A stretch of DNA of 64,000 nt, from positions 64,001 through 128,000 of the forward strand of contig JBDGSL010000002.1 in NCBI GenBank assembly GCA_042217555.1. Direction: 5' to 3'. This document shows positions 26,690 through 43,395 of this stretch, in pieces. The notes beneath the pieces were generated by a model that saw only the letters and a list, made by a program, of their open reading frames with translations, was not told the origin of the DNA and did not search any database. Each line of letters opens with the position of its first letter. Position 1 is the stretch's first letter. The position numbers and the translations under genes are program-made. The DNA is from Candidatus Nanohalobium sp. GTDB lineage: Archaea > Nanohalarchaeota > Nanosalinia > Nanosalinales > Nanosalinaceae.

Positions 26690-27445
26690 ATGGAGCTACC
26701 AAACCAGTTCGACGAGAGGATAAGGCCAGACATCATCAAGAGAGCCAACCTTTCAATCAAGAGCAAGAAAAGACAGGACTACGGGTCAGACCCGGAAGCA
26801 GGACTGCGACACGTAGTATACTGGAAAAAACAGCAAAACGCATACAGAGGGCAGAAAGGAAAGGGAATGTCTCGTACTCCTCGAAAGATCCGTGTCAGAA
26901 GAGGAAGTCAGATCTATGGAGACGGAGCAGAAGCACCGAACACGATCGGTGGCAGAACCGCCCATCCTCCAAAAGCAGAGAAAAACTTTGAAGAAGAGAT
27001 CAACGACAAGGAAAGAAGAAAGGCAATCAGGTCAGCAATCGCAGCAACAGCAGACCGGGAACTTGTCTCAGAGAAACATGAGTATGAAGGAGAAGTCCCG
27101 ATTATCGAGGAAGGAATCTCAGGGATTGAAAAGACACAGGAACTCAAGGAGAAGCTCGAAGACCTTGGACTTGAAGACGAACTTGACAGAGTGTCCGAGA
27201 AGAAAGTTAGAGGAGGTAAAGGAGCCAATCGTGGAAGAAAGTACGTTAGAAAGGTTGGCCCGCTTGTAGTAACAGCGGAAGACGAAGGAATCTCAGATGC
27301 GGCAAGCAACCTGGCAGGTGTAGACCACTCCCAGGTAGATCAGCTGAACGCCGAAAAACTTGCTCCAGGAGCAGAACCAGGAAGACTGGTTGTATGGAGC
27401 AAAAAAGCAGTAGAGAAACTTGAAGAAGACGGTATGTACCAATGA
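26690..27445 (+). CDS. rpl4: 50S ribosomal protein L4 (uL4)
   Basis: RPDII, GGRTAHPPK and LAPGAEPGRL. Confidence 0.97.
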   Translation: MELPNQFDERIRPDIIKRANLSIKSKKRQDYGSDPEAGLRHVVYWKKQQNAYRGQKGKGMSRTPRKIRVRRGSQIYGDGAEAPNTIGGRTAHPPKAEKNFEEEINDKERRKAIRSAIAATADRELVSEKHEYEGEVPIIEEGISGIEKTQELKEKLEDLGLEDELDRVSEKKVRGGKGANRGRKYVRKVGPLVVTAEDEGISDAASNLAGVDHSQVDQLNAEKLAPGAEPGRLVVWSKKAVEKLEEDGMYQ

Positions 27446-27501
27446 AAACGAAAACACAAGGTTTTCTAAGATTCAGCAACACGCGAGGTGTAACTGAATA
27501 A
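27442..27501 (+). CDS. Intergenic micro-ORF L4/L23, 19 aa MKTKTQGFLRFSNTRGVTE
   Basis: ATGA overlap with the L4 stop; TAATG overlap with the L23 start. Confidence 0.6.
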   Translation: MKTKTQGFLRFSNTRGVTE

Positions 27502-27770
27502 TGGAAGTTGACAGAGCATGGGAAGTTATCGAAAATCCACACATGACAGAACAGGCGATGGACATGATCGACGAAGAAAACAAACTCGTCCTCATGGTGG
27601 ATCTGGAAGCAGACAAAGGCCAGGTAGAGGACGCAGTAGAGACTCTGTTCGATGTGGATGTTGAGAAGGTCAATACTAACATCACGTCTTCCGCAAAGAA
27701 AAAAGCATACGTAAGACTAAGTCCAAGTGACAGCGCGATGGACGTCGCGACTGAGCTTGGCATGATGTGA
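27501..27770 (+). CDS. rpl23: 50S ribosomal protein L23 (uL23)
   Basis: PHMTE...ENKL...KVNT...KKAYVRL. Confidence 0.96.
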   Translation: MEVDRAWEVIENPHMTEQAMDMIDEENKLVLMVDLEADKGQVEDAVETLFDVDVEKVNTNITSSAKKKAYVRLSPSDSAMDVATELGMM

Positions 27771-27780
27771 GGTAGGTAAT

Positions 27781-27834
27781 ATGACTAAAATCGAAGATTT
27801 TATGGGTTACCAGAAACTCGGTGAGTTTCGATAA
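27781..27834 (+). CDS. Intergenic micro-ORF L23/L2, 17 aa MTKIEDFMGYQKLGEFR
   Basis: Own SD (GAGGTAGGT); TAATG overlap with the L2 start. Confidence 0.6.
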   Translation: MTKIEDFMGYQKLGEFR

Positions 27835-28535
27835 TGGGATCGCCACTAAAACAGCAGAGAAGAGGAAAGGGAAGTCCAAACTTCCAGGCCAATAAGAAAG
27901 GCAAGGGAGTAACGGATCACAAAAACGCAGAAGTAACGGGAACAGTAGTAGACCTGGTCCACGACCCGGCCAGGACAGCACCGGTAGCAAAAGTAGAGTT
28001 CGAAGACGGAGAAGTCAGAAACATTCTTGCACCGGAAGGCCTACAGACAGGAGACGAAATTCAGGTCGGAGTATCAGCACCTGTAGAACCCGGAAACGTA
28101 CTTCCACTAGGAGAAATCCCGGAAGGAGTACCAATCAACAACATCGAACTACAGCCAAACGACGGAGGAAAAATGGTTAAGGCATCAGGAACATACGCAT
28201 TCGTCGTAACACAGGAGCAGGACGGAGTAAGAATCAAGCTTCCAAGCGGTGACTTCAAGAAACTCGATACTGAATGCAGAGCAACAGTTGGAAAGGTTGC
28301 AGCCGGCGGAAGAAAAGACAAGCCGCTTGTCAAGGCCGGAAACGCATCCAAGGCTGCAAAGGCTCGTGGAAAACAGTACCCAACTGTCTCCGCAGTAGCC
28401 ATGAACGCAGTCGACCACCCATTCGGTGGATCAGCAAAACCAGGACAGCCAAAGACAGTTTCCAAGCACGCTTCACCAGGAAGCAAGGTTGGAAACATCG
28501 GAGCCAAACGCTCCGGAAAGAAGAACAACGACTAG
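27834..28535 (+). CDS. rpl2: 50S ribosomal protein L2 (uL2)
   Basis: QQRRGKGSP, HDPARTAP and AMNAVDHPFGG. Confidence 0.97.
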   Translation: MGSPLKQQRRGKGSPNFQANKKGKGVTDHKNAEVTGTVVDLVHDPARTAPVAKVEFEDGEVRNILAPEGLQTGDEIQVGVSAPVEPGNVLPLGEIPEGVPINNIELQPNDGGKMVKASGTYAFVVTQEQDGVRIKLPSGDFKKLDTECRATVGKVAAGGRKDKPLVKAGNASKAAKARGKQYPTVSAVAMNAVDHPFGGSAKPGQPKTVSKHASPGSKVGNIGAKRSGKKNND

Positions 28536-28545
28536 GTGAACCCGC

Positions 28546-28605
28546 ATGACTAAAATCAAAGATTTTATGGCATTGCAGAAAACCACTGAGGTGGTTTTCG
28601 AATGA
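28546..28605 (+). CDS. Intergenic micro-ORF L2/S19, 19 aa MTKIKDFMALQKTTEVVFE
   Basis: Own SD AGGTGA; ATGA overlap with S19; near-identical 5' half to 27781-27834. Confidence 0.65.
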   Translation: MTKIKDFMALQKTTEVVFE

Positions 28606-28979
28606 CAGAAGAATTCACTTACAGAGGAAAAACACTCGAAGAACTCCAGGACATGAGCCACGACGAACTAGCACCGCTTATGGATGCCCGGGCTCGCAGA
28701 AAACTGGAGAGAGGTCTTCGAGAAAACGAGGAAAAACTACTGGAAAAACTGGAGGACAAGGACCGTGTCCAGACACATCTCAGAGGAATGATCGTCCTTC
28801 CAGAAATGGTAGGAAAGACTATCGAGATCTACAACGGGCAAGGATTCGAAGAGGTTGATATTGAAGAAGAGATGATTGGCCACTACCTAGGAGAGTTCGC
28901 AAAAACCAGGAAAGAAGTATCACACAGCGCACCAGGACTCGGTGCTACAAGATCTTCAAAGCACGTACCGCTTAAGTGA
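28602..28979 (+). CDS. rps19: 30S ribosomal protein S19 (uS19)
   Basis: FTYRGK, THLRGMIVLPEMVG and EMIGHYLGEF. Confidence 0.97.
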   Translation: MTEEFTYRGKTLEELQDMSHDELAPLMDARARRKLERGLRENEEKLLEKLEDKDRVQTHLRGMIVLPEMVGKTIEIYNGQGFEEVDIEEEMIGHYLGEFAKTRKEVSHSAPGLGATRSSKHVPLK

Positions 28980-28984
28980 TTCAA

Positions 28985-29092
28985 ATGCGAAAATCAGAGA
29001 TTCGAAAATTCGGAGAATTTTCTCCAAGAAATTCCTCACGGAATTTCGTTTTCAGCCTTCCCAGAAACTCACAAGGTGAGTTTCGGCAATGA
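28985..29092 (+). CDS. Intergenic micro-ORF S19/L22, 35 aa MRKSEIRKFGEFSPRNSSRNFVFSLPRNSQGEFRQ
   Basis: Starts 5 nt after the S19 stop; ATGA overlap with L22. Confidence 0.6.
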   Translation: MRKSEIRKFGEFSPRNSSRNFVFSLPRNSQGEFRQ

Positions 29093-29511
29093 ACAAGATC
29101 GAAACAGAACCACATCAGGCAAGAGCACTCGGCAAGAACATGCCGATCTCCTGGAAAGACGCAACAGAAATCGGCCGCTTCATCAAGGGAGACACGGTCG
29201 AAAAAGCAGAGAGAAAACTGGAAAAGGTAACGGAAGAAGAACTCGCCGTACCGTACACAAAGTTCGACAGCGACGCAGGCCACCGAAGCGGAGACGGAGA
29301 CTCAGGAAAATATCCTGTCAAAGCAGCAGAACACATGCTTGAAGTCGTACAGGAAGCAGCAAGCAACGCAGAACACCAGGGACTTAACCCGGGATCACTG
29401 CATGTAGAAAACGTCATCACAAACAAAGGAAACGAGTACGCAACCCCTGGACGGTTTAGGGGAGAGAAAACCAAGGCAGCACATGTCAACGTAATCGTAG
29501 GTGAAAAGTAA
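29089..29511 (+). CDS. rpl22: 50S ribosomal protein L22 (uL22)
   Basis: ISWKDATEIGRFIKG, GKYPVKAA and NAEHQGL. Confidence 0.96.
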   Translation: MNKIETEPHQARALGKNMPISWKDATEIGRFIKGDTVEKAERKLEKVTEEELAVPYTKFDSDAGHRSGDGDSGKYPVKAAEHMLEVVQEAASNAEHQGLNPGSLHVENVITNKGNEYATPGRFRGEKTKAAHVNVIVGEK

Positions 29512-29615
29512 TGAATCGAAAACGAAAATTCAGTGAATTTTCTCAGAGAAAATCCTCAGGGATTTTCGGATCAGAGATTTTCTCAGTGATTTACACGCAA
29601 GGTGAAAATCAATAA
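29511..29615 (+). CDS. Intergenic micro-ORF L22/S3, 34 aa MNRKRKFSEFSQRKSSGIFGSEIFSVIYTQGENQ
   Basis: TAATG overlaps at both ends; own SD AGGTGA. Confidence 0.65.
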   Translation: MNRKRKFSEFSQRKSSGIFGSEIFSVIYTQGENQ

Positions 29616-30769
29616 TGCAAGAGAAACAGTTTATTGAGAAGGGAGCAAGGAAGGTAAGGCTTGATGAGTTCTTCTCGGATGAGCTTGCAGGAGCAGGTTA
29701 TTCCAACTGTGAAATTGAGAGGACTCCTACAAGTACCAAAATCGTAGTACATGCACAGAAACCAGGACTGGTTATAGGACGTGGTGGAAGCAGGATTCAG
29801 GAACTGACTGAAGATCTTGAAAGCGAGTTCGATTTCGAGAACCCGCAGATCGAGGTCAGCGAGATCGATGAACCGGATGCAGACGCAAAGGTCGTGGCGA
29901 AGAGTATTGCAGACTGGCTTGAGAAAGGAGGCCACGCCAAACGTGTAGGATACACATACGTCCGCAGGATGAAAGAAGCAGGTGTTATCGGAGCAGAGAT
30001 AGAGATTACAGGAAAACTCTCCGGTAACAGAGGAAGAACAGAGAAGTTCTCCTTCGGATACGTCAAGAGATGTGGAGACACCTCAAAGAAAAACGTTCAG
30101 AAAGGATACGAGCTAGCCCGTACCAAACCAGGTGCTATCGGTGTCAAAGTAAGGATCATGAAGGACATGCCAGGTTTCCTTCACAGAGACGTCGATGTAA
30201 GCGGTGAAGTCCTCCATGAAGTCCAGGAAACTGAGGAAGCAAGAGATAAATCCACGAGGATTGAGGAAGTCGTCAGAGAAGCAGAGAATATGACTTCGGC
30301 AGAGCTTGAAAGAGCTATCGAGGAGAAGACAGAGGAAGTCAAGACAGACGACATCTCCAAGGAGGAAATCAGGGAAGCCTTCGACTCCGCTGACGCAGTA
30401 GAGAAACTGGAGGAAGAAGCTGAAGAAGTCGAAGAAGAAGCAGAGGAAATCATCGAGGAAGAAACAGGTGAAGAACAGGAAGAAGACGTTGAAGCAACTG
30501 AAAAGGAAGCTGAAGAAGTCAAAGAAGAGGCAGAGAAAGTTGCTGAAGAGACAGAGGATGAAGACGTAGAAGAAAAGGCTGAAGAAGTTGAGGAGGAAAT
30601 GGAAGAAGTAGAAAAAGACCTTGAGGAAATCGTCTCAGGTACGATAAGCGATGCCAAAGAGATGATCAACGAACTGGAGAATCCTGACTTCACAGCCCTG
30701 CTCGAGGCAGAGAAAGAGAACAAGGACCGTAAAACCTTCAAGGACTGGCTTGAAACCCGGAAGGATTAA
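29615..30769 (+). CDS. rps3: 30S ribosomal protein S3 (uS3) with long acidic C-terminal extension
   Basis: KH domain PGLVIGRGG; GAIGVKVRIM; ~195-aa E-rich tail. Confidence 0.96.
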   Translation: MQEKQFIEKGARKVRLDEFFSDELAGAGYSNCEIERTPTSTKIVVHAQKPGLVIGRGGSRIQELTEDLESEFDFENPQIEVSEIDEPDADAKVVAKSIADWLEKGGHAKRVGYTYVRRMKEAGVIGAEIEITGKLSGNRGRTEKFSFGYVKRCGDTSKKNVQKGYELARTKPGAIGVKVRIMKDMPGFLHRDVDVSGEVLHEVQETEEARDKSTRIEEVVREAENMTSAELERAIEEKTEEVKTDDISKEEIREAFDSADAVEKLEEEAEEVEEEAEEIIEEETGEEQEEDVEATEKEAEEVKEEAEKVAEETEDEDVEEKAEEVEEEMEEVEKDLEEIVSGTISDAKEMINELENPDFTALLEAEKENKDRKTFKDWLETRKD

Positions 30770-30794
30770 AAGAGCTGAGAGGTGAAACCAAACC

Positions 30795-30983
30795 GTGAAA
30801 GCAGAAGAACTAAGAGAGAAGAGCGTATCCGAACTGAAGGAAGAACTTGGAAACCTTCAGAAAGAACTCGTACAGCAGAGAGGACAGATCGAGGCCGGAG
30901 GATTCGCTGACAGCCCGGGAGAGATCAAAGAGATGAAGAAAACCATTGCAAGAATCAAAACAGTTCTCAACGAACGCAACTAG
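30795..30983 (+). CDS. rpl29: 50S ribosomal protein L29 (uL29)
   Basis: MKAEELRE...IKEMKKTIARIKTVLNE. Confidence 0.95.
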   Translation: MKAEELREKSVSELKEELGNLQKELVQQRGQIEAGGFADSPGEIKEMKKTIARIKTVLNERN

Positions 30984-30989
30984 ATACTA

Positions 30990-31097
30990 ATGAACGAAAT
31001 TCACAGAATTTCTGGAATCAAAGGCCTTTCAGGCCTTCTGCAACCTAGAAACCTGAAAGGTTTCGGAACTGCAGAAAATCGGGAGGCCGATTTTTGA
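30990..31097 (+). CDS. Intergenic micro-ORF L29/SUI1, 35 aa MNEIHRISGIKGLSGLLQPRNLKGFGTAENREADF
   Basis: Starts 6 nt after the L29 stop; TGA abuts the SUI1 ATG; contains four perfect hairpins. Confidence 0.6.
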   Translation: MNEIHRISGIKGLSGLLQPRNLKGFGTAENREADF

Positions 31098-31403
31098 ATG
31101 TCAGAGACCTGTCCAAAGTGCGGAATGCCTGAAGATCTTTGCGTCTGCGACAGCATCGCACGTGAAGATCAACAGATTACAGTAAAACTCGACTCAAGAA
31201 GCTACAATAAAGAGATGACAGTAGTTGAAGGCCTTGAAGAAGGATCAGAAATAGACGAACTGGCCTCGACACTGAAATCCCAACTTGCCTGCGGAGGAAC
31301 AGCCAAGGAAGGCCACATAGAACTTCAGGGCGACCACAGAAGAAGAATCGTCGACATACTGGAAGACGAAGGCTTCTCACGAGAAAACATCGAAGTCAAA
31401 TAA
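31098..31403 (+). CDS. Translation initiation factor aIF1/SUI1
   Basis: CPKCGMPEDLCVC, LKSQLACGGT and IELQGDH. Confidence 0.95.
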   Translation: MSETCPKCGMPEDLCVCDSIAREDQQITVKLDSRSYNKEMTVVEGLEEGSEIDELASTLKSQLACGGTAKEGHIELQGDHRRRIVDILEDEGFSRENIEVK

Positions 31404-31596
31404 ATCTTCGACACATTTTTACTTCTCCATTTTCTCCGTATTGAGTCTCAGTAGCATGACTTACTGATTGGGGGCAGCGATTTTTAGCTTTTCTAAAATT
31501 GGAATATAAGGTTTGAGGACAGGCTTGAGGGAATATTTGATTATGTTGAGGTAGTAGATGAAGATAACTTCCTTGTTGTCAGGGCTGTGAAGTAGT

Positions 31597-31989
31597 TTAC
31601 CTGTTTCTCTCGTGTTTTCTGGCAAACTCTTGCCAGTTGTCTACAATTTTCTGGTATGCCGACCAGTAGTCCAGATGCTCTAGAGGAACTTTGTCGTCCT
31701 TGAAGGGGTGATCCTGGAACTTTAGGTCGATGTGTACAAATCCGTGTGCTGTGTCTAAAGTCACTACTTCCTCGTTTTCCTCTGTCTCAGGATTCCTGCA
31801 GACAAGAGTTATGCAGAAGTCTTCTTTTTCTTCAACGTCTTCTAGTTTATAGTCTGGCCTGTAGACGACCTCATATGCTTTGCCTTTAAACTGTCCCAGA
31901 GATAAGGAGTCGCTGGTCATTGCCGATTTTCCCTCTAAATGTTGTTTGTAATACATCATTGATAAAGTGTTGAGGTCAGACATCATCAC
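31597..31989 (-). CDS. Hypothetical protein, possible toxin partner of the divergent HTH gene
   Basis: VVTLDTAHGFVHID resembles the 'RYDNAHG' motif of DUF6516/TumE-like proteins. Confidence 0.45.
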   Translation of the reverse strand: MMMSDLNTLSMMYYKQHLEGKSAMTSDSLSLGQFKGKAYEVVYRPDYKLEDVEEKEDFCITLVCRNPETEENEEVVTLDTAHGFVHIDLKFQDHPFKDDKVPLEHLDYWSAYQKIVDNWQEFARKHERNR

Positions 31990-32022
31990 TTATTTAAGCT
32001 TTCAGCAACCACATTCCATATA

Positions 32023-32403
32023 GTGGCGGAAATGGAGACTACTACTGCAGAATCTGAAATAGATGTGGAAAAAGAGGGGTCGAAATCCTATGTTGGTGAG
32101 GACACGCTCGAATTTGTCAAAGAAGTTATTGAGAACAACAAAGACGTAAGTACTCACGTCATACCTGCTGAACTTGCCAGGAAGATAATGACGGAGAAAA
32201 GAATAGAGATTATAGAAACTATCAGAGAAGAGGAAATAGAATCCAAAAGAGATCTGGCCAGAAAAGTAGACAGAGACATCAGTGTAGTCTCTAAAGACCT
32301 CAAAGTACTCTGGAAATACGGCATCGTCGAGTACAGGGAAGAAGACAATAACCGGAAGATACCGGAGATCACAGCCGAAAAAATAATAATAGAGCCTCTG
32401 TAA
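32023..32403 (+). CDS. HVO_A0114-like HTH protein (putative antitoxin)
   Basis: KIMTEKRIEIIETI...SKRDLARKVDRDISVVSKDLKVL...GIVE...RKIP. Confidence 0.75.
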   Translation: MAEMETTTAESEIDVEKEGSKSYVGEDTLEFVKEVIENNKDVSTHVIPAELARKIMTEKRIEIIETIREEEIESKRDLARKVDRDISVVSKDLKVLWKYGIVEYREEDNNRKIPEITAEKIIIEPL

Positions 32404-32412
32404 AAACAATGT

Positions 32413-32935
32413 ATGCCGGGCGCAGTATTTCTAGAAGGCGACAAAGTCAACCTCAGAACAGTTGAGGAAGAGGATCTGGAATTTATCAGAGATGCCTATA
32501 ACCATCCTGAGGTTTGGCCTTGGCTAACTCATCAAGGTCCTCAAAACTTGGAGCAGGAGCGAGAATTCTTCGAAAACGTTATCTGCAGTGATGATCAGAT
32601 CAACCTGGCGATTTCCGACGAAGAGACTATAACGGGTTTGATATCTCTCGTTCCGAAAGATGAGGACTGTAGCAGAGATAGGTATCTGGATTCATCCTGA
32701 CTACCACGGAAACGGGTTTGGCACAGAAGCATCTGAACTCTTGGTAAAGTACGCCTTTGACCACAGGAACTACCACAAAATCGTGGCCCGTGCAATTGAG
32801 TCAAACACAGGATCTCAGAAAATCTGGGAGAAACTGGGGTTCCAGAAAGAAGGAGAACAAAGAGAGGAAATGTACAGAGACGGCAAACACAGAGACGTCT
32901 ACTACTACGGCCTCATAGAACACGAGAGAAATTAA
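32413..32935 (+). pseudogene. RimJ/RimL-type GNAT acetyltransferase, frameshifted near 32660-32666
   Basis: N-half VNLRTVEEEDL and C-half AEIGIWIHPDYHGNGFGTEA...SQKIWEKLGFQKEG lie in frames differing by +1. Confidence 0.8.
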
Positions 32936-33535
32936 ATGAGAAACAAAGTGAAGAAAGGCTATGAAGAAGGAGATTATGAATCTGATTACAGGGAAGGCAG
33001 GGACGTAAGGCCTGAAGAAAAAGATTTTTTCGACTCCCTTTCAGACCTGACAGGAGGAGATAAACTACTGGATTTAGGCTGTGGGACTGGAGTTCCTTTC
33101 GACAGGTATCTCTCAGAAAAGGGTTGGAAAGTTACAGGCTTTGATATCGCTGAAACTCACGTGGAAAAAGCCAGGGAAAACGTACCTTCTGGAGAGTTTA
33201 GACAGGGAGACTTCTTTCAACTGGACTTTGAAGAAGGCAGCTTTGACGCTGTAGTCAGCTTCTACGCTATATTCCACATTCCCAGGAAACAGCATTCTAA
33301 ACTGCTTGATAAGATAAGCAGATGGGTGAAACAAGACGGTGCTATTTTGATTACCATGGGAGCAGAAAAAATGGATATGATGGAAGGAGACATAGGAGGA
33401 GAGAAAATGCTGTGGAGCTCATACTCAGCAGAAAAGAACAAAGAAATAGTCAAAGAAGCAGGCTTCAACATAGTTAGCTCATATGAGGAAGACTGGAGAG
33501 AAGAAACACACCTTTGGATCCTAGCAAAACCATGA
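32936..33535 (+). CDS. Class I SAM-dependent methyltransferase
   Basis: LLDLGCGTG and FDAVVSFYAIFHIP. Confidence 0.9.
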   Translation: MRNKVKKGYEEGDYESDYREGRDVRPEEKDFFDSLSDLTGGDKLLDLGCGTGVPFDRYLSEKGWKVTGFDIAETHVEKARENVPSGEFRQGDFFQLDFEEGSFDAVVSFYAIFHIPRKQHSKLLDKISRWVKQDGAILITMGAEKMDMMEGDIGGEKMLWSSYSAEKNKEIVKEAGFNIVSSYEEDWREETHLWILAKP

Positions 33536-33569
33536 TAAAAACAAAATAATTCTCACATCATTATACTAC

Positions 33570-33848
33570 ATGCCACGAACACCTGAAAACCTGCCAAGAC
33601 ACGAACTGATCGGATTGGAAGCAGAAGTAGAGAAGCATCCTGATTCCAACAAAGAAGGTATCTCGGGAGAAGTACTGGATGAAACCCGTGACATGCTGAG
33701 GATAGGCGATAAATGGGTGGAGAAAAAAGGCACTACTTTCCTGTTTGAACTGGGTGAGAAGAAGGTTCGTATCGAAGGCGATATCATCGATAAAAGGCCG
33801 GAGGACAGGTTGAAAATGAAGATGCCTGGTAAATGGGAAAGTGTCTAG
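33570..33848 (+). CDS. rnp1: Ribonuclease P protein component 1 (Rpp29)
   Basis: HELIGL, ISGEVLDETR and KRPEDRLK; usual position between SUI1 and S17. Confidence 0.93.
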   Translation: MPRTPENLPRHELIGLEAEVEKHPDSNKEGISGEVLDETRDMLRIGDKWVEKKGTTFLFELGEKKVRIEGDIIDKRPEDRLKMKMPGKWESV

Positions 33849-33893
33849 TCCCTGTCATTACTGATTTAATATTCGGCGAACAAGATTTTTACC

Positions 33894-34169: not shown

Positions 34170-34809
34170 ATGAAGTGATGTTTAGGGAGAGGTTGTGTAA
34201 CTTGATTTTTCTCTGCAGCTGCTGAAAGATTTATCAGCAGGGCCGAATTATATTTGTTCGTGGAATTGATTGTAACTCCGCATGGAGAGGAAGATTTAGA
34301 TTCGCTGGAGAAGACAGGAAGCCTGGGTAGGATAGCGAAAAAGATTAATGAGATAGAGGGGAAGTTGAGCAAGGTTTCGATCCTGAAAAAGTAGTTGAAA
34401 AGCGGACAGGAGGTACGTGGCATCCTATTCTACAGCAAACAGTAGGAGACTATAGGATATGGTTTATCGAGGGTGGAAAAACCAAGAAAGGTGATGAAGA
34501 CAAACTATATTTGATCAGGGTATTGACCAAGCCAGAAGCATTGAAACTACAAGGTGTAGAAGTTAATCCAGATATTTATCTTTAATATCGCTCCAGTTCT
34601 TACCTTCGCCGCTGCCGACCGACTTCAAGGCCTCGATAGTTTTCTCTGCCTCTCTTCTCACATCTTCCGCCACCTTCACAGTTTCAGGCATTTCAATCCA
34701 CCTATGTCCTATTTTGGTATAAAGACTTAAACTTCTTACTGTCTTCCACCATCAGGGCTTGCACCCTTTTTAAGAGTTGTCTTCTTTTTTGTGTTTACGG
34801 CCTTTGGGT

Positions 34810-34940
34810 CGTGGATTTGGGATTCCTGCTGAAAGTCGCTTTCGAGCGAAACTGCAGATAGGGGTCCGGCTGAAAGTGGAAAACCTAGTTTTTCCTTGAT
34901 GGTCGGGTTTCTATGCTTTTTTTCAGCAGGAGTGTTCACG
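34810..34940 (+). promoter_or_regulatory. Structured RNA leader upstream of rps17
   Basis: ATTCCTGCTGAAA (34822-34834) pairs with TTTCAGCAGGAGT (34921-34933); CGTGGAT pairs with GTTCACG; internal TCGCT-TTCG-AGCGA hairpin. Confidence 0.55.
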
Positions 34941-34956
34941 AGGTGAAAAACGAATA

Positions 34957-35229
34957 ATGAGCCAAGAATACGAAGTGCGAGGCGGAACTTTCACAGGGAC
35001 GGTTGTATCTACGAAGATGCAGAAGTCCGCTACGGTGAGATGGGAGCACACACAGGAAATTCCAAAATACGAGAGAAAAGAAAGAAGAAACACCAAGGTC
35101 ACGGTTCACGTACCGGAAGACATTGACATAGAGGAAGGTGACAGAGTTGAGATAGGGGAGACACGGCCCATCTCAAAGACTAAAAGCCATGTAGTGATTG
35201 AAAAAATTGAAAACGGTGGCTCTGAATGA
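34957..35229 (+). CDS. rps17: 30S ribosomal protein S17 (uS17)
   Basis: GTVVSTKMQK and GETRPISKTK. Confidence 0.96.
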   Translation: MSQEYEVRGGTFTGTVVSTKMQKSATVRWEHTQEIPKYERKERRNTKVTVHVPEDIDIEEGDRVEIGETRPISKTKSHVVIEKIENGGSE

Positions 35230-35336
35230 AGATTTCCGCAGGAAATACTTCTGGCCACAGATTCGGAGAATCTGTTAATAGAAGTTCTGAGCAGAAGAAC
35301 TTCGGCAGAAATCACCTCAGAGGTGGTTTCGAATGA
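35226..35336 (+). CDS. Intergenic micro-ORF S17/L14, 36 aa MKISAGNTSGHRFGESVNRSSEQKNFGRNHLRGGFE
   Basis: ATGA overlaps at both ends; four hairpins. Confidence 0.65.
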   Translation: MKISAGNTSGHRFGESVNRSSEQKNFGRNHLRGGFE

Positions 35337-35734
35337 AACCTCTAGGATCGAACATAACACGCTCACTTGACCTGGGAGCAGAACTGACATGTGCAGATAA
35401 CTCCGGAGCCAAAGAACTAAAGATAATAGGCGTTAAGTCCAGAAAGGGCAGAAGAAGCAGAAGAGAAAGCGCAGGAGTCGGAGATGTCGTAAAGGTAAAG
35501 ATACTTAGAGGAGACGAAGAAGTAAGACACCAGGTATTCGACGCAGTTATAGTGCGTCAGGCAAAGGAGTTCGAAAGACCTCAGGGCCTCAGCGTAAAGT
35601 TCGAAGATAACGCAGCAGTCCTGATCGAGGAAGAGACCGGAATGCCGAAAGGAAACGTGACAAAAGGCCCGATCGCAAAGGAAGTAGTACAGAGATTCTC
35701 AGCGATCGGAAAAATCGCGTCAAAGGTGGTTTAA
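35333..35734 (+). CDS. rpl14: 50S ribosomal protein L14 (uL14)
   Basis: CADNSGAK, FEDNAAVLI and GPIAKEV. Confidence 0.97.
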   Translation: MKPLGSNITRSLDLGAELTCADNSGAKELKIIGVKSRKGRRSRRESAGVGDVVKVKILRGDEEVRHQVFDAVIVRQAKEFERPQGLSVKFEDNAAVLIEEETGMPKGNVTKGPIAKEVVQRFSAIGKIASKVV

Positions 35735-35787
35735 TGAATAAAATCGCAGATGTTAAGACTAGCCGGAAACCGGAGGTTTTCAACTAA
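35734..35787 (+). CDS. Intergenic micro-ORF L14/L24, 17 aa MNKIADVKTSRKPEVFN
   Basis: TAATG overlaps at both ends; own SD AGGTGG. Confidence 0.65.
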   Translation: MNKIADVKTSRKPEVFN

Positions 35788-36449
35788 TGGCAGATAAGAC
35801 ACAGAACTGGAGCAAGGAATGGAAGAAAAGCGAGAACCCTCAGAAACAGAGAAAATACAGGAAAAACGCTCCACAGCACGTAAAGGACAAAATGATATCA
35901 GCAAACCTCTCACACGGACTTAGAGACCAACTGGATACAAGAAACCTTCAGGTTAACCTTGGTGACAGGGTTGAAGTCATGAGAGGAGATTTCAAGGGAA
36001 GCAGCGGAATAGTAAGTGCCATAGACAGAAACAGACAGAAGATATACATCGACGGCCTTGAAGTAGAGAGACAGGACGGGACGACAAGAGAAAGACCGTT
36101 CCAGCCTTCAAACCTTCAGATACAGGCACTTAACCTTGAGGACATGGAAAGAATCGAGAAATACGAAGTAGAAGACGCAGAAGAGATCCAGATCGACGAG
36201 GAAGAAGTTGAAGAAGTGCTTGAAGAAGACGATGAGAACGAGATGATGCAGCAGATGCAGGGAGGCGGCGCACAGCCAGACATGGATATAGATGAGGAAG
36301 ACATGGAAGAAATCAAGGAGGCCGCAGAAGAAGCAAGCGAAGATGAAGGTTCCGAAGACGAATCAGAGGAACCCTCAGAAGATGAAGAAGTTGAGGAACA
36401 GGACGAGACAGAAACCTCTGAAGAAGACCAAGAAGGTGAAAAAGAATGA
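35787..36449 (+). CDS. rpl24: 50S ribosomal protein L24 (uL24) with acidic tail
   Basis: PQKQRK, GDRVEVMRGDFKG and PSNLQI. Confidence 0.95.
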   Translation: MADKTQNWSKEWKKSENPQKQRKYRKNAPQHVKDKMISANLSHGLRDQLDTRNLQVNLGDRVEVMRGDFKGSSGIVSAIDRNRQKIYIDGLEVERQDGTTRERPFQPSNLQIQALNLEDMERIEKYEVEDAEEIQIDEEEVEEVLEEDDENEMMQQMQGGGAQPDMDIDEEDMEEIKEAAEEASEDEGSEDESEEPSEDEEVEEQDETETSEEDQEGEKE

Positions 36450-37105
36450 CACATCAGAAAAGACTTTCAGCACCCAAGCATTATCCCATCTCCAGGAAAG
36501 AGAACACTTACATCTCGACGGTTAAGGGAAGCAGAAGTATCGAAGACGCTATCCCGGCCAATGTTTTCCTGAGAGATGTAACAGGTTACGCAGAGACGGA
36601 CAAAGAAGCCAAAAAAATAGTGAGAAACGGAGACCTCCTCAGGAACGGTGAAAGGATCAGGGATGTCAAGCAGGGAATTGGAGTCCTGGACGTAGTAGAG
36701 CTTCCAAAGGCAGAAGAAACTTTCAGGGCAATAAGAGATGGAAAAAACCTTAAATTCATCCCAACAGAGGATAAAAGAACGGCTGCCAAGATCACAGATA
36801 AAACTGTTGAAGACGATGAATTTATCTACCATCTTCACAACGGAGAGAACTTCAGGAGCACTACGGAATATGAAACAGGAAGCACCTTGCTTCTCAAGGA
36901 GGGAGAAGAGGAAGTCAAGCTTGAAGACGGAGCAGATGTTCTTGTTATCTCCGGTCAGCACGCAGGGGAGAAAGCAGAACTTGAAGAGATAAACAGGAGA
37001 GGGATGAATCCCGATACCGGAACGGTTTCGGAAGAAGGCACTGAGTTCGAGACAAAACTTGAAAACCTTGTAGCTCTTGGAGACCTCGAGGTGGTTTTTG
37101 AATGA
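36446..37105 (+). CDS. rps4e: 30S ribosomal protein S4e (eS4)
   Basis: HQKRLSAP, FLRDVTGYA and VISGQHAG. Confidence 0.95.
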   Translation: MTHQKRLSAPKHYPISRKENTYISTVKGSRSIEDAIPANVFLRDVTGYAETDKEAKKIVRNGDLLRNGERIRDVKQGIGVLDVVELPKAEETFRAIRDGKNLKFIPTEDKRTAAKITDKTVEDDEFIYHLHNGENFRSTTEYETGSTLLLKEGEEEVKLEDGADVLVISGQHAGEKAELEEINRRGMNPDTGTVSEEGTEFETKLENLVALGDLEVVFE

Positions 37106-37614
37106 CAGAGAACCCTATGAAGGAGATCAAGGTGGCAAAGGTAACAGTGAATATCAGTGAGGAAAACGTAGGAGATCAGGTTGAGGCAGCTTACGATCTG
37201 ATTGAAAAAATTACAGGTAAAGAGCCTGTCTGGGTAGAGTCAAAGGAAGGAGCGAAGACTTTTGGAAACCGACAGGGCTTGAACATCGGTGCAATGGTAA
37301 CACTTAGAGGAGAGGACGCAGTAGATTTCCTCGAAAAAGTTCGACCAGCTATCGAAGAACTTAACGCTTCAGCTTTCAGCGACGGAAACTTTGCCTTCGG
37401 AATCAGTGAATACATCGATGTTCCAGGAGTGGACTACGATGCAGACATCGGTATGAAAGGTTTCGAGGTGAACGTCGTACTGGAAAGACCTGGATACAGG
37501 GTGAAGAAACGGGATCATAAACCCTCCGAGATCGGAGGCAGTCATAAGGTCTCTAACGATGAAGCAATCGAGTTCGCGGAAAGCAAGCTTGGATTCGAGG
37601 TGAATAATCAATGA
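37102..37614 (+). CDS. rpl5: 50S ribosomal protein L5 (uL5)
   Basis: [20 protein letters not shown] and [12 protein letters not shown]. Confidence 0.96.
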
Positions 37615-37835
37615 GTTATGAGAAGGTTTTAGACCAGATCAAGCACAAGGAGGGTAAGAGAAAGAAGTTTGAGAAGAATAACTCTCCTAAGGAAAGAGAC
37701 TACGGAAAATCCAAGAAAGAATGCAGAAGATGCGGTAGAACAGGTAGAGGAGTTATCAGCAAGTACGGACTTAACTACTGCCGTCAATGCTTCAGAGAAG
37801 TGGCCGAGGAGATCGGCTTCAAACAGCTTAAATAG
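37611..37835 (+). CDS. rps14: 30S ribosomal protein S14 (uS14, Zn-binding)
   Basis: CRRCG...[12 protein letters not shown]. Confidence 0.96.
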
Positions 37836-37847
37836 GTGAGCCGAAAG

Positions 37848-37910
37848 ATGACAAGAGAATACGGAAACAAGTTTTCTAATCTAGAAAACGCCGGAGGCGA
37901 TTCCCAGTGA
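37848..37910 (+). CDS. Intergenic micro-ORF S14/S8, 20 aa MTREYGNKFSNLENAGGDSQ
   Basis: Own SD AGGTGA; GTGA overlap with the S8 start. Confidence 0.6.
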   Translation: MTREYGNKFSNLENAGGDSQ

Positions 37911-38296
37911 AACATGATACACTTAGCGATGCACTGAGCGCGATTAACAACGCGGCCAGGAACAACAAGGATTACGCAGTGGTCTCTCCAACCAGCAGCC
38001 TGCTGAAGAACGTACTGATCGAACTGCAGCAGAACGGTTACATAGGAGTATTTGAACTCGTAGAGGACGGAAAGGGAGGTAAGTTCAAGATAGAGGTAAC
38101 GGACGACATCAATGAATGCAGGCCTGTCAAACCTAACTTTTCAGTGCAGAACGACGAGTTCGACAAGTGGGCCAAGAGATACCTGCCTGCACAGGGATTC
38201 GGCGATCTATTGGTCACGACCTCACACGGAGTAATGACGCATGAAGAAGCCCGTGAGGAAAACCTGGGAGGAAAACTGCTTGGATACGTCTACTAA
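37907..38296 (+). CDS. rps8: 30S ribosomal protein S8 (uS8)
   Basis: DTLSDAL, TTSHGVMTHEEA and GGKLLGYVY. Confidence 0.96.
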   Translation: MKHDTLSDALSAINNAARNNKDYAVVSPTSSLLKNVLIELQQNGYIGVFELVEDGKGGKFKIEVTDDINECRPVKPNFSVQNDEFDKWAKRYLPAQGFGDLLVTTSHGVMTHEEAREENLGGKLLGYVY

Positions 38297-38308
38297 GAGG
38301 TAGAAAAA

Positions 38309-38839
38309 ATGTCAGAAGAAACAACAATCGAGATTCCGGAGGACTTCGACGCAGAATACGAAGAAGGAGTCTTCACTCTTTCAAACGGCGAAGAAGTCAG
38401 TAAGAAGATGGAACACGCACTGGTAGACGTAGAGATCAACGGTCAGGAAGTAACTTTCAGCACTTCCAGCAGTAAGAAAGATGTTCAGAGCATCGTCCAT
38501 ACTTTCAAGAGCCATGTAGAAAACATGATTGAAGGACTGGAAGACGAGCATGTCTACCGGATGAAGGGTGTTTACGCACACTTCCCTATGACTATCAAAC
38601 AGCAAGGTGGCCAGGTAGTGATCGAGAACTTCATGGGTGAAAGAAACCCTAGGAAGGTAGACATTATGGACGGAGTAACTGTAGAGGTAGATGGCGAGGA
38701 CCTGACACTGAAGGGAGCGGACAAGGACGCCGTAAGCCAGACAGCAGCAAGGATCGAACAGGAATGCAAGAAAGGAAACCGTGATCCAAGAACCTTCCAG
38801 GACGGAGTATACATCACACAGAAAGGTGATAGTCAATGA
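38309..38839 (+). CDS. rpl6: 50S ribosomal protein L6 (uL6)
   Basis: VYAHFPM, ENFMGE and RDPRTFQDGVYI. Confidence 0.96.
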   Translation: MSEETTIEIPEDFDAEYEEGVFTLSNGEEVSKKMEHALVDVEINGQEVTFSTSSSKKDVQSIVHTFKSHVENMIEGLEDEHVYRMKGVYAHFPMTIKQQGGQVVIENFMGERNPRKVDIMDGVTVEVDGEDLTLKGADKDAVSQTAARIEQECKKGNRDPRTFQDGVYITQKGDSQ

Positions 38840-38937
38840 GGCAGACCAAAGGTTTGCTTGATACAGAAAACAAAGACTCAACCGGTTTTTCCGGGAGAAG
38901 ATTCAGAGAAGCTTCGAATCAGGTGATTTTCAAATGA
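38836..38937 (+). CDS. Intergenic micro-ORF L6/L32e, 33 aa MRQTKGLLDTENKDSTGFSGRRFREASNQVIFK
   Basis: ATGA overlaps at both ends; own SD AGGTGAT. Confidence 0.65.
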   Translation: MRQTKGLLDTENKDSTGFSGRRFREASNQVIFK

Positions 38938-39269
38938 GTTTTGAGAGACAGGACAAGCACAAGAACAACAAACTGAAAGATAAATCCTGGAGAAGCCCCG
39001 ACGGAGGGCATTCCAAGGTAAGACTTGAGAAAAACGGAGCTGCACCCAAACCCAAGATAGGTTACAGGGCTCCCAGCGAGATAAGAGGAAGACATCCCTC
39101 AGGATACGAAGAAGTACTGGTACACAACACCGGCGACCTGGAAGAGATAGAGGAAGGAGAAGCAGCAAGAATAGCGTCCAAGGTCGGTGGAAGAAAAAGA
39201 GAACAGATAATAGAAAAAGCAGACGAAGAAGACATCAAAGTCCTCAACAGAGGTGAACAGTCAGAATGA
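38934..39269 (+). CDS. rpl32e: 50S ribosomal protein L32e (eL32)
   Basis: FERQ, WRSPDGGHSK and RGRHPSGYEEVLVHN. Confidence 0.95.
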   Translation: MSFERQDKHKNNKLKDKSWRSPDGGHSKVRLEKNGAAPKPKIGYRAPSEIRGRHPSGYEEVLVHNTGDLEEIEEGEAARIASKVGGRKREQIIEKADEEDIKVLNRGEQSE

Positions 39270-39334
39270 TTGATTCTGACTTTGCAGAAGATTCTCTAAA
39301 GAATCTTCGAACCGAGGTGTTTTCGAATGACTGA
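39266..39334 (+). CDS. Intergenic micro-ORF L32e/L19e, 22 aa MIDSDFAEDSLKNLRTEVFSND
   Basis: ATGA overlap upstream; 8-nt ATGACTGA overlap with the L19e start. Confidence 0.55.
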   Translation: MIDSDFAEDSLKNLRTEVFSND

Positions 39335-39770
39335 TCTAAAGTCACAGAAGAGAATGGCCGCAGAAGTAATGGACGTAGGAAAGGATCGTGTCTGGATCAA
39401 CCCTGATGAACAGGAAAAAGTAGAAGAAGCAATCACCAGGAAAGATATCAGGAACCTTGTAGAAGGAGGTACCATCCAGAAAAAAGACGAGGAAGGAAAC
39501 AGCAAAGGTAGAAGCAGAGAGAAAAAGAAACAGAAAAAGAAAGGACGGAGAAAAGGACAGGGAAGCCGGAAAGGAAAGAAATCGGCCAGAAAAGACGATA
39601 AACAGAAGTGGATGGAAAAAATCAGATCCATCAGGGAAAGACTGAAAGAAATGAAGGAAAACGAGGAAATCACCTCTGAACAGTACAGAGAACTCTACGA
39701 CATGAGCAAGGGAGGATTCTTCAGAGACACAAAACACCTAGAAAACCATGTAGAGAACAAACTGGAGTGA
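39327..39770 (+). CDS. rpl19e: 50S ribosomal protein L19e (eL19)
   Basis: LKSQKRMAA, VGKDRVWINP and GSRKGKKSAR. Confidence 0.96.
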   Translation: MTDLKSQKRMAAEVMDVGKDRVWINPDEQEKVEEAITRKDIRNLVEGGTIQKKDEEGNSKGRSREKKKQKKKGRRKGQGSRKGKKSARKDDKQKWMEKIRSIRERLKEMKENEEITSEQYRELYDMSKGGFFRDTKHLENHVENKLE

Positions 39771-39776
39771 ACAGAC

Positions 39777-39818
39777 ATGAAAATCAGAGACCTACAGAAC
39801 ACAGAAGGTGAACTTTGA
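39777..39818 (+). CDS. Intergenic micro-ORF L19e/L18, 13 aa MKIRDLQNTEGEL
   Basis: SD GGAGTGA; TGA ends 1 nt before the L18 ATG (39820). Confidence 0.5.
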   Translation: MKIRDLQNTEGEL

Positions 39819-39819
39819 T

Positions 39820-40329
39820 ATGGCAGAAGACTCAAACACTAAAGTCCCGCACAGAAGACGAAGAGAACAGAAAACAGACTACCAGCAGAGAAGAAAACTG
39901 GTGAAGTCAGGAAAACCAAGAGCAGTAGTAAGACTGAGCAACAAACACACGAGAACACACCTGGCACACTTCAACAGGGAAGGCGATGAGAACACAGCAC
40001 AGACACTCAGCAAAGAACTGGAAAACTACGGCTGGGAACACAACACAGGTAATCTTCCAGCAGCATACCTGACAGGTTTCCTGACCGGTATGAAAGCTGA
40101 AGAAGACGAAGCAGTACTTGATATAGGCCTTAGAGAAAAAAAGAATGGAGGAAGAGTATTTGCAGCAGTTAAAGGCATGAACGACGCAGGACTCAACGTT
40201 CCTGTAGGCGAAGAAGTAATCCCTGAAGAATCAAGGATCAAAGGAGAACACATTAAAGAAATGATCGACGAAGAAGTCCCGAAAAGCTTTGAAGAAGTCA
40301 AAGAAAACATTAAAGGTGATTTCGAATGA
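39820..40329 (+). CDS. rpl18: 50S ribosomal protein L18 (uL18)
   Basis: RRRREQKTDY and GNLPAAYLTG; ATG 39820 has SD AGGTGA. Confidence 0.96.
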   Translation: MAEDSNTKVPHRRRREQKTDYQQRRKLVKSGKPRAVVRLSNKHTRTHLAHFNREGDENTAQTLSKELENYGWEHNTGNLPAAYLTGFLTGMKAEEDEAVLDIGLREKKNGGRVFAAVKGMNDAGLNVPVGEEVIPEESRIKGEHIKEMIDEEVPKSFEEVKENIKGDFE

Positions 40330-40430
40330 TCGAAAATCAGAGATTTTCTGGACTCGAAACCGGAACGGTTTCTATGAGTACAGAATCCGTTGGATTCGAA
40401 CATGCAGAAATTCTAGGTGATTTCGAATGA
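40326..40430 (+). CDS. Intergenic micro-ORF L18/S5, 34 aa MIENQRFSGLETGTVSMSTESVGFEHAEILGDFE
   Basis: ATGA overlaps at both ends; flanked by the direct repeat AGGTGATTTCGAATGA. Confidence 0.65.
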   Translation: MIENQRFSGLETGTVSMSTESVGFEHAEILGDFE

Positions 40431-41092
40431 GCGAACAGGAAACAGAGGAGATTTGGAAGCCGAAGACAGAACTCGGTGAGATGGTAGCTAACGGACAGAT
40501 AACAGGAATCCGTGAAGCACTGAACTCCGACAAGAGGATAATGGAGCCGGAGATAGTTGATCAACTGGCAGATCTTCAGGAAGAAGTAGTACTGATCGGA
40601 GGAACACCTGGAAAGGGAGGGGGCAAGAGAAGAACAGTCTCCAAACGTACGGCTAGGATGCACAAGTCCGGAGCAAGATACAACAGTAAAGCGATGACAA
40701 TACTGGGTAACAAGAACGGTATCGTCGGGATCGGCATGGGAGAATCAGATGACACCCGTGCAGCGATCGACGACGCCAACAGGAGAGCAAAACTCAACCT
40801 GATAGAAGTGCCGCTTGGAAACGGAAGCTGGGAGGACCAGGGAGAAAACAACACTTCCATCCCTCTCGCAGTAGAAGGAAAGTCCGGAAGCGTAACCGTA
40901 GAAGTCAAGCCAGCGCCGAGAGGAACAGGTTTAGCTGCCAGTGACGAGGTAAAGAAGATACTTGAACTGGCTGGCATCCGGAACGCCTGGGTGCAGGCAC
41001 GTGGAACAACACGAACACGTGAAAACCTGATAAAGGCAACATTCAACGCACTGAAAAAAATCAAACAGTACCAGAGAAGTGATGACAGATGA
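40427..41092 (+). CDS. rps5: 30S ribosomal protein S5 (uS5)
   Basis: WKPKTELG, PAPRGTGL and LELAGI. Confidence 0.96.
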   Translation: MSEQETEEIWKPKTELGEMVANGQITGIREALNSDKRIMEPEIVDQLADLQEEVVLIGGTPGKGGGKRRTVSKRTARMHKSGARYNSKAMTILGNKNGIVGIGMGESDDTRAAIDDANRRAKLNLIEVPLGNGSWEDQGENNTSIPLAVEGKSGSVTVEVKPAPRGTGLAASDEVKKILELAGIRNAWVQARGTTRTRENLIKATFNALKKIKQYQRSDDR

Positions 41093-41424
41093 CACTACTA
41101 GTAGCAGTCAAGGTCAGGGGCAGCATCGACGCCTCCGAATCAATCAGCAGGACACTGCAGACACTGGGCCTGGAGAAGAAAAACCAGGCAAGAATCATGG
41201 AAGACAATGAGTCCAACAGAGGGATGCTGAGAAAGGCCAAGGACTACATCGCCTACGGAGAAGTAGACCAGGAAACCGTAGAGCAGCTTGAAGCAGAGAC
41301 AGGAGAAACAGTCACTCTATCACCTCCAAGTGGAGGATTCAAAAGCACGAAAAAACAGCGTCACCAGGGAGGAAGTCTCGGAAAAAGGGACGACATGGAA
41401 GAACTCCTTGGAAAGATGCTGTAA
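41089..41424 (+). CDS. rpl30: 50S ribosomal protein L30 (uL30)
   Basis: VAVKVRG, GMLRKAKDYIAYGE and LSPPSGGF. Confidence 0.94.
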   Translation: MTLLVAVKVRGSIDASESISRTLQTLGLEKKNQARIMEDNESNRGMLRKAKDYIAYGEVDQETVEQLEAETGETVTLSPPSGGFKSTKKQRHQGGSLGKRDDMEELLGKML

Positions 41425-41472
41425 CCGAAAATCGAGAGATTTTCTAAAAAATTCAACACACAGTGTTCAACA

Positions 41473-41526
41473 ATGCGAAATTCAAAGAATTTCTGTATTA
41501 CCAGAAGCACAGAGGTGCTTCGATAA
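41473..41526 (+). CDS. Intergenic micro-ORF L30/L15, 17 aa MRNSKNFCITRSTEVLR
   Basis: TAATG overlap with L15; ATG is 48 nt after the L30 stop but the same frame is open back to that stop. Confidence 0.45.
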   Translation: MRNSKNFCITRSTEVLR

Positions 41527-43392: not shown

Positions 43393-43395
43393 AGG

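Follow-up and report, generated by a model that had tools for sequence, protein, structure and literature searches.

Mycobacterial interspersed repetitive units (MIRUs) were reportedly described by Supply et al. 1997. A 2025 review presents them as apparently mobile repeats that insert at start codons and carry an open reading frame (ORF) whose coupling to the gene at -4 leaves expression little affected (PMC12548453), and a second source gives them as repeats of 40-100 bp with 40-50 copies, filled and empty sites and tetranucleotide repeats (PMC3184786). Coupling of this kind is known from Haloferax and E. coli, where termination-reinitiation (TeRe) and hairpin unfolding (UTNI) are described (PMC6728339, PMC10666635). 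Here we compare these systems with a 64,000-nt stretch of Candidatus Nanohalobium sp. (GCA_042217555.1, contig JBDGSL010000002.1, positions 64,001 to 128,000; the whole stretch is called the window below), in which fourteen spacers of the S10-spc ribosomal protein genes each hold a micro-ORF of 13-36 codons. A first-pass annotation of this DNA took the micro-ORFs for a coupling or regulatory layer or a set of micropeptides and overlooked that the spacers are a repeat family: they are 43-108-nt insertions of a two-hairpin (or stacked) repeat of Nanohaloarchaeota. We consider it probable that they are copies of a small, MIRU-like mobile repeat of non-coding type, tolerated because its mini-ORF relays ribosomes, and the repeat itself is best read as selfish or neutral. 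The host locus and its elements are as follows.

25707..41951, + strand: host locus, S10-spc ribosomal protein genes uL3 to uL15, interrupted by a 3.5-kb insert between SUI1 and uS17
27442..27501, + strand: element and micro-ORF 1, 19 codons, uL4-uL23; starts at -4, ends at -1; junction empty in genomes G001 and G003; 82% like the uS14-uS8 copy of G026
27781..27834, + strand: element and micro-ORF 2, 17 codons, uL23-uL2; two hairpins, Shine-Dalgarno (SD) motif in the second
28546..28605, + strand: element and micro-ORF 3, 19 codons, uL2-uS19; clearest case; covariance model 63 bits; folding z -3.3
28985..29092, + strand: composite element and micro-ORF 4, 35 codons, uS19-uL22; near-identical to the copy of G009
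29511..29615, + strand: composite element and micro-ORF 5, 34 codons, uL22-uS3; 3' half common to 52-55-nt copies of all three congeners
30990..31097, + strand: composite element and micro-ORF 6, 35 codons, uL29-SUI1; stop abuts start (0)
35226..35336, + strand: composite element and micro-ORF 7, 36 codons, uS17-uL14; 7-nt direct repeat spanning both start codons
35734..35787, + strand: element and micro-ORF 8, 17 codons, uL14-uL24; subfamily present in relatives at uL23-uL2 and uL5-uS14
37848..37910, + strand: diverged element and micro-ORF 9, 20 codons, uS14-uS8; weak folding, z +0.6
38836..38937, + strand: composite element and micro-ORF 10, 33 codons, uL6-eL32; plain -4 overlap in all three congeners
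39266..39334, + strand: element and micro-ORF 11, 22 codons, eL32-eL19; ends at -8; subfamily common to G005 and G012 along with an altered eL32 end
39777..39818, + strand: element and micro-ORF 12, 13 codons, eL19-uL18; shortest, diverged; ends at +1; not among the covariance-model matches in the window
40326..40430, + strand: composite element and micro-ORF 13, 34 codons, uL18-uS5; flanking 16-nt direct repeat made up of SD, spacer and ATGA
41473..41526, + strand: element and micro-ORF 14, 17 codons, uL30-uL15; starts at +48; a near twin precedes another gene at G000 C12:31276

SUI1, Rpp29 and uS17 were identified by Pfam matches; most of the other ribosomal protein names are ones we presume from the sequences and the gene order. 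All fourteen micro-ORFs stand at these coordinates with an ATG start and no internal stop, as the first-pass annotation had reported. Measured from the upstream stop they start, in order, at -4, +10, +10, +5, -1, +6, -4, -1, +12, -4, -4, +6, -4 and +48, which confirms that thirteen begin no more than 12 nt from that stop; the last, at uL30-uL15, lies at +48 and is therefore not coupled to uL30. The micro-ORF stops fall at -1 (five), -4 (six), 0 (one), -8 (one) and +1 (one) relative to the next start. All 14 downstream junctions thus lie within -8 to +1, inside TeRe-type geometry (stop at about -8 to +10 of the next start, with the SD in the upstream frame), and the -8 and +1 cases fall outside the four junction types originally listed. 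The 52-nt uL15-secY spacer holds no such ORF. A loose SD-like motif precedes 11 of the 14 micro-ORF starts; the start and SD beside the upstream stop had been counted towards coupling, but for the most part they already belonged to the old junction and thus add no independent evidence.

That the arrangement is unlikely to arise by chance is borne out by several comparisons. A bridge at both ends is seen in 13 of the 14 spacers; dinucleotide shuffles would yield 2.6 such spacers, and shuffles confined to the interior 6.8, under which the per-spacer probabilities multiply to 1.2e-4. Elsewhere in the genome, by our own rough gene calls, a bridge occurs in 12 of 225 co-oriented spacers of 30-130 nt that lack a hairpin and in 5 of 17 that have a loosely defined one. 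Under a frameshift null, 9 of 10 hairpin spacers in this genome are bridged against 3.65 expected. The first-pass annotation had proposed looking in relatives for frames that stay open, and 42 of 42 hairpin spacers there keep both frame and stop position, against 19.0 expected. Its assumption that frames would agree one time in three is, by these expectations, roughly right and only approximate, because junctions at -8, -4, -1, 0 and +1 jointly admit all three frames. An assembly artefact is unlikely, since a second DNA run of the same study yielded contigs that agree with 35053-36853 and 37706-39261 at every position and cover four of the elements. Breaks in contigs aligned at 85% similarity stem largely from other organisms and were set aside.

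The basic unit of the repeat is about 55 nt long and consists of two A+T-rich hairpins (36-45% G+C), and seven longer spacers (95-115 nt) contain 3-5 stacked hairpins each. Genome-wide, we counted 109 intergenic perfect hairpins, compared with 0-3 in shuffled sequence. A covariance model built from 42 single-unit copies, scored on at most 80 candidates per genome, found matches in 46 of the 70 genomes of the phylum (0-28 each, 21 in this genome), superseding an earlier loose pattern that had matched 14 of 70. At E<=1 it matched 13 of the 14 window spacers, six of which had helped to build it, and a profile search of this genome at the same threshold returned 35 matches. An exact pattern scan of 185,579 genomes gave 19 matches, 17 labelled nanohaloarchaeal and 2 labelled 'uncultured archaeon', and the same scan of viral contigs gave 0. 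Rfam returned 5 weak matches in 25000-44000, all well under threshold, and the element was not recognised by eye among five non-coding RNAs of a cultured nanohaloarchaeon in the accessible part of PMC10266531. A different repeat family of 59-178 nt occurs in L052 (G057, from an archaeal family outside the order) at uL3-uL4, uL23-uL2, uL2-uS19, uS17-uL14 and uL24-eS4, and a full bridging ORF is mostly absent at its junctions. In L020 (G013) at uL2-uS19 and L023 (G014) at uL30-uL15 we found inserted ORFs of 102 and 110 aa with coupled ends of the same type; neither reaches a Pfam cut-off, and they are possibly cargo-bearing relatives of the element or unrelated genes.

We compared the same operon in 55 relatives with a uL14 match, with SUI1-Rpp29, Rpp29-uS17 and uL15-secY excluded by design and four spacers dropped (three with uncertain starts, one containing N). 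Junctions in the same family are mostly short, with 467 of 547 below 30 nt. On a ribosomal-protein tree, 14 of 20 S10-spc junctions are filled in this genome, 2-3 in the three congeners and 0-7 in the 31 same-family relatives, ten of which have no copy at their scorable junctions, many being scorable at only part of the 20. For 13 of the 14 filled junctions at least one congener has an empty orthologue; uL22-uS3 is filled in 4 of 4 genomes of the genus, and sister genomes fill different junctions. Same-family spacers of 30-130 nt usually hold the same element with a bridging ORF, 53 of 61 being bridged against 10.6 expected from whole shuffles and 37.5 from interior shuffles.

These filled and empty pairs reveal the anatomy of the insertion. 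The empty-junction form is kept up to the micro-ORF ATG at uL2-uS19, uL23-uL2, uS19-uL22, uL29-SUI1, uS14-uS8, uL6-eL32 and uL18-uS5, which means that coupling at the 5' end is largely inherited, while coupling at the 3' end is carried by the element. At the clearest junctions the old start codon of the gene now opens the micro-ORF, and the insert brings a new SD, a stop and a new start, the SD sitting within the element's last hairpin and the stop beside the new start codon. Element 3 illustrates this best, with the ancestral SD, spacer and ATG retained in front and the new SD locked in hairpin 2. The upstream side at uL4-uL23 and eL32-eL19 is unlike that of the congeners, and the eL32-eL19 element seems to begin inside the SD-to-ATG spacer. 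Many empty junctions of the lineage have spacers of +10 to +17 with an SD of their own.

An SD match of 5 nt or more is present at 62 of the 67 filled junctions. For an anti-SD check we looked for the 16S rRNA 3' end, which was not found in this assembly. The predicted median energy needed to open the ribosome-binding region, computed at 37 C with no salt correction, is 9.7 kcal/mol at filled junctions (n=67) and 4.6 at empty ones (n=443), and the micro-ORF start, at a predicted 4.5 kcal/mol, resembles an ordinary start. We tried and rejected an attenuator-like alternative fold: a ribosome at the micro-ORF start would lower the opening energy by more than 2 kcal/mol in just 6 of 55 copies. Hairpin 1 shows two-sided changes at 6 of 7 pairs, a level reached in 0 of 500 shuffles and above all slid controls; palindrome self-correction could be an alternative source of such changes.

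The ribosome relay proposed in the first-pass annotation is the best-supported mechanism and plausible, in that the frame stays open to the next start far more often than chance predicts and the new SD is predicted to be structured; translation itself we infer. A ribosome would reach the old start, either by reinitiation from the upstream gene or afresh at the old SD, translate 13-36 codons and so melt the hairpins, then stop at or next to the start of the real gene, where it would either reinitiate by means of the element's SD or free the site for a new subunit. In Haloferax, reinitiation falls by 60% at +13 nt and is gone at +22 nt (PMC10666635), and downstream genes are strictly dependent on upstream translation (PMC10666635, PMC6728339), so that a structured gap of 45-115 nt should be costly unless a ribosome crosses it. 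With a relay the insert would be of little cost, and a copy that breaks it by its length or sequence would leave 45-115 nt of structured, untranslated RNA ahead of an essential gene and be eliminated. New copies might come from a mover or from recombination with relatives living alongside, and deletions reaching from one SD and ATG signal to its duplicate might remove them; such gain and loss would explain the patchy pattern, with this genome simply heavily loaded.

Copies of the family also occur outside the operon. Of the 35 profile matches, 24 precede a gene start; 22 of these have an SD and 18 passed an automated test for coupling. Among the 11 at other positions, 2 have an SD and none is coupled, so that the ORF signals belong to the copies at start codons. 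About 20 further copies precede genes whose sequences we read as ATPase, polymerase, exosome, proteasome, EF-2 and other ribosomal genes. Some of these head a unit with nothing upstream to couple to, and insertion at start codons therefore fits better than the bridging of junctions. The same hairpins occur in tRNA introns and tRNA flanks without SD or ORF signals. Introns are present in 22 of the 29 tRNAs found in this genome, and long ones (up to 179 nt) with stacked family hairpins lie at G000 C1:47962-48193, C15:25611-25806, C27:24561-24746, C50:23837-24091 and C64:20970-21173. At G000 C24:2398, C88:1092, C3:58574-58865, C31:11008 and C75:50088-50201, family hairpins adjoin 13-21-nt duplicated ends of tRNAs or 3' ends of genes (the latter presumably PCNA-like and thermosome-like), an arrangement like minimal integration scars. 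Family hairpins also stand in frame inside two or three genes of this genome; the double hairpins at G000 C39:11506-11553, in a 1293-aa protein that we take to be helicase-like, and at C44:5547-5598, in a 260-aa protein that we assume to be endonuclease III-like, are like Rickettsia palindromic elements. Several family hairpins lie in an 850-nt stretch without a called gene at G000 C12:32245-33102, possibly a gene for a structured RNA that has taken up inserts.

Near-identical copies are found in different genera. Element 4 agrees with the copy in G009, a genome of another genus, at 103 of 104 aligned bases, apart from a 3-nt indel, whereas the genes on either side share 77% identity, with 19 of 28 and 29 of 44 four-fold sites the same; element 2 has 95% identity, with one 3-nt indel, to the uL4-uL23 copy of G009. 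When each of 67 copies is paired with its closest counterpart from another genus, the two stand at different junctions in 45 cases. From these comparisons we infer that copies move between sites, probably with site-specific lateral spread or retention in addition. The direct repeats that surround the two start codons mostly measure 3-7 nt, with one of 16 nt; at least 4 nt are shared in 11 of 14 elements, the ATG being shared by necessity, and one element shares none. Duplications range from 0 to 21 nt, and the terminal complement in the alignment is only about 5 bp. Flanking direct repeats of at least 12 nt (12-21 nt) accompany 12 of 89 hairpin clusters, compared with 10 of 600 control positions, and several of them are tRNA or gene ends. 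Element-like 3' arms occur at 16 of 450 empty junctions and may be scars of loss. Three further features of the window belong to the family or resemble it.

37080..37105, + strand: eS4 3' end resembling an element 3' arm at an otherwise plain -4 junction; possibly the scar of a lost copy
41427..41443, + strand: extra family hairpin immediately 3' of the uL30 stop, outside any micro-ORF
46901..46957, - strand: additional repeat copy outside the operon, not at a coupled junction

As candidate movers we searched this genome (94% complete) for transposase, TnpB, reverse transcriptase, LAGLIDADG and Cas1 families. The searches returned one Y1 transposase, 6 TnpB-type matches, 2 reverse transcriptases, 18 LAGLIDADG matches and no Cas1. 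An IS200-type TnpA (Y1, PF01797) was rejected as the mover, being present in 4 of 70 genomes against 46 of 70 for the element, and single-contig genomes with 10-17 element copies have no PF01797 match. Three short LAGLIDADG loci inspected by eye showed no element-type ends. The two reverse transcriptases look, by context, like enzymes of diversity-generating retroelements (DGRs), with a DGR-like layout at G000 C75:52121-54347 and C38:426-1950. DGRs keep a homing hairpin at the 3' end of the target gene. At the C75 locus a family-type double hairpin stands exactly at the 3' end of the putative target gene. Family-type hairpins also accompany the IS200/IS605 element at G000 C11:15190-16822 (TnpA plus a split TnpB): they precede tnpA and occur within the right end of the element.

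Several explanations in which the micro-ORFs matter differently, or not at all, have to be set against a relay on a mobile repeat. At 19 loci chosen by DNA pattern (no ORF criterion, although the pattern includes the SD and several loci overlap the earlier set), 17 are bridged at both ends by an ATG or GTG ORF running from no more than 16 nt of the upstream stop to -8 to +2 of the next start; one ends at +7 and one has no ATG or GTG frame. If the micro-ORFs were incidental, so that ribosomes started afresh on the real gene at the element's SD and the short frame was seldom translated or had no effect, neither this regularity nor the retention of frame and stop position in all 42 hairpin spacers of relatives would be expected. 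The 103 off-frame stops over 1132 codon positions per frame in bridged copies and the predicted structure over the new SD also count against it. We therefore find this reading quite unlikely, even though the many +10 to +17 empty junctions with their own SD suggest that ribosomes can start afresh at an SD, several copies stand before the opening gene of a unit or stop +6 to +10 away from the start codon, and A-rich hairpins are stop-poor anyway (interior null of about 0.5 per spacer). Frame and length are constrained, and the peptide is not: hairpin 1 is read in all three frames (19, 14 and 6 of 39 scorable copies), so the peptide is irrelevant, and conservation lies at the level of DNA and structure. 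The micropeptides of the first-pass annotation are thus strongly disfavoured. Peptide motifs do recur within subfamilies, but the products are basic (lysine plus arginine 20%, aspartate plus glutamate 13%) in an acidic proteome (12% and 20%), and none of the six longest has a Pfam match. Equally improbable, in our estimate, is that the spacers are tRNA-type introns with a bulge-helix-bulge (BHB) motif, excised from the mRNA to restore a plain junction. Related hairpins do fill tRNA introns of this genome, and a relaxed motif search matched 17 of 75 spacers against 7.3 when shuffled (a strict search was discarded, as it matched just 2 of 22 tRNA introns in the positive control). However, the relaxed search is far stronger on the tRNA introns themselves (13 of 22 against 1.0, in a narrower window), internal palindromes can yield an excess of junction matches, and an excised intron would need no open frame, SD or coupled stop.

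The weightier alternative is a domesticated regulatory layer, in which the hairpin-locked SD would let the next gene be translated only after translation upstream, or only with the help of a hairpin-binding factor, and so tune ribosome synthesis, for example between host-attached and free phases. In its favour are the strong bias to translation-machinery genes, the predicted SD lock, the covariation of hairpin 1, subfamilies specific to a junction across genera (22 of 67) and a uL22-uS3 junction filled in all four genomes of the genus. We nevertheless hold it unlikely, and the evolved coupling or regulatory layer of the operon that the first-pass annotation envisaged is not supported: most same-family junctions are short, ten of 31 relatives have no copy and the close congeners have 2-3, sister genomes fill different junctions, hairpins of this kind are found in and beside tRNA genes (introns and flanks) with neither SD nor ORF, and most copies have no attenuator-like switch. 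A mobile, relay-tolerated repeat has its own difficulties. Long target duplications are exceptional (1 of 14 over 7 nt), and no mover was found in the searches of this genome and phylum. For 22 of 67 copies the closest counterpart in another genus occupies the same junction, against 4.3 expected, a pattern that old, site-specific copies maintained by selection would also produce. Outside the operon some copies are not tightly coupled (+6, +7, +10 or no ORF), and bridging is less regular in other families, with 8 of 22 long spacers (2.6 and 5.2 expected under the two shuffles). The counts also overstate significance, because kin are not independent. The main unexplained fact is the strong target bias: 14 of 20 S10-spc junctions are filled, whereas some 500 co-oriented gaps of at most 130 nt contain only about 20 copies that precede other genes, nearly all of them genes that we read from sequence as belonging to translation, transcription or ATPases; neutrality alone does not explain it, and it leaves an opening for the regulatory alternative. 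A bolder combination, which we regard as doubtful, would have a transposase-free repeat target the most abundant nanohaloarchaeal RNAs (starts of ribosomal protein, polymerase and ATPase mRNAs; tRNA introns and ends), move between genera and become partly domesticated, its hairpin-locked SDs turning the ribosomal operon into a strict relay of lineage-dependent tightness.

The likeness to MIRUs is close: both are dispersed repeats of 40-100 bp in tens of copies, with filled and empty orthologous sites, insertion at start codons, internal inverted repeats, an own ORF that overlaps the neighbouring genes, no internal transposase and perhaps short direct repeats at the ends, and for both harmlessness through translational coupling is proposed. 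The element differs in being archaeal, in its A+T-rich rather than G-C-rich stems and in coupling at -1, -4, 0, -8 and +1 rather than at -4 alone. It also differs in its concentration in ribosomal protein and other core operons, its near-identical copies across genera, its hairpin units in tRNA introns and flanks, and pattern matches confined to nanohaloarchaea. No mycobacterium was matched in the exact pattern scan, which is unable to exclude remote kinship with MIRUs. We do not file the element as a MIRU, because its stems are not G-C-rich and no sequence kinship was shown. The first-pass annotation knew of no description of this arrangement; that statement holds at most for archaea, since PMC12548453 and PMC3184786 describe it for MIRUs, and our literature search, with most subscription papers outside its coverage, found no description of the element in archaea.

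Other systems share single traits. TeRe and UTNI have the same -4 and -1 overlaps with an SD inside the upstream frame, coupling that drops steeply as the distance grows, and ribosome-binding-site structure opened by upstream translation; the upstream partner there is a real gene, whereas here it would be a disposable frame on an inserted repeat. Repetitive extragenic palindromic (REP) sequences are linked to RAYT. Relative to REP/REPIN, miniature inverted-repeat transposable elements (MITEs) and the Neisseria REP2 and Borrelia IR repeats (PMC3184786), the element has no co-occurring HUH/Y1 transposase (4 of 70 genomes) and just 5 bp of terminal complement, and its defining trait is the relay ORF. 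Leader-peptide attenuators and 'ribosome delivery' by upstream ORFs (PMC12548453) likewise place a short ORF upstream of a hairpin-occluded start, but the element has no sensing codons or conserved peptide and no alternative-fold switch in 49 of 55 copies, and it is sporadic, not conserved.

Beyond the repeats, the locus and window have some further features. The variable 3.5-kb insert between SUI1 and uS17 (window 31404-34956) encodes DUF7718, an HVO_A0114-type helix-turn-helix protein, GNAT, a methyltransferase, Rpp29 and DUF433, and its length in relatives ranges from near 0 to several kb. The GNAT acetyltransferase (window 32413-32935) is split over two overlapping frames (Pfam positions 2-77 and 81-138), as in a frameshifted gene or pseudogene. 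Long acidic C-terminal extensions are present on uS3 (29615-30769, about 180 residues) and uL24 (35787-36449, about 100 residues), and a 2583-aa ORF lies on the - strand at window 8691-16442.

If our reading is right, frames of this type deserve caution in annotation, as they mimic small proteins or N-terminal extensions. The dozens of natural filled and empty junction pairs would offer a way to study reinitiation after very short ORFs and hairpin melting in archaea, and the near-identical copies across genera, together with those in tRNA introns, would give new handles on how transposase-free repeats, MIRUs included, move. The strategy known from MIRUs, insertion at a start codon with a throw-away ORF that passes ribosomes on, would then also operate in archaea, and there in the operon that a symbiont with a reduced genome can least do without.

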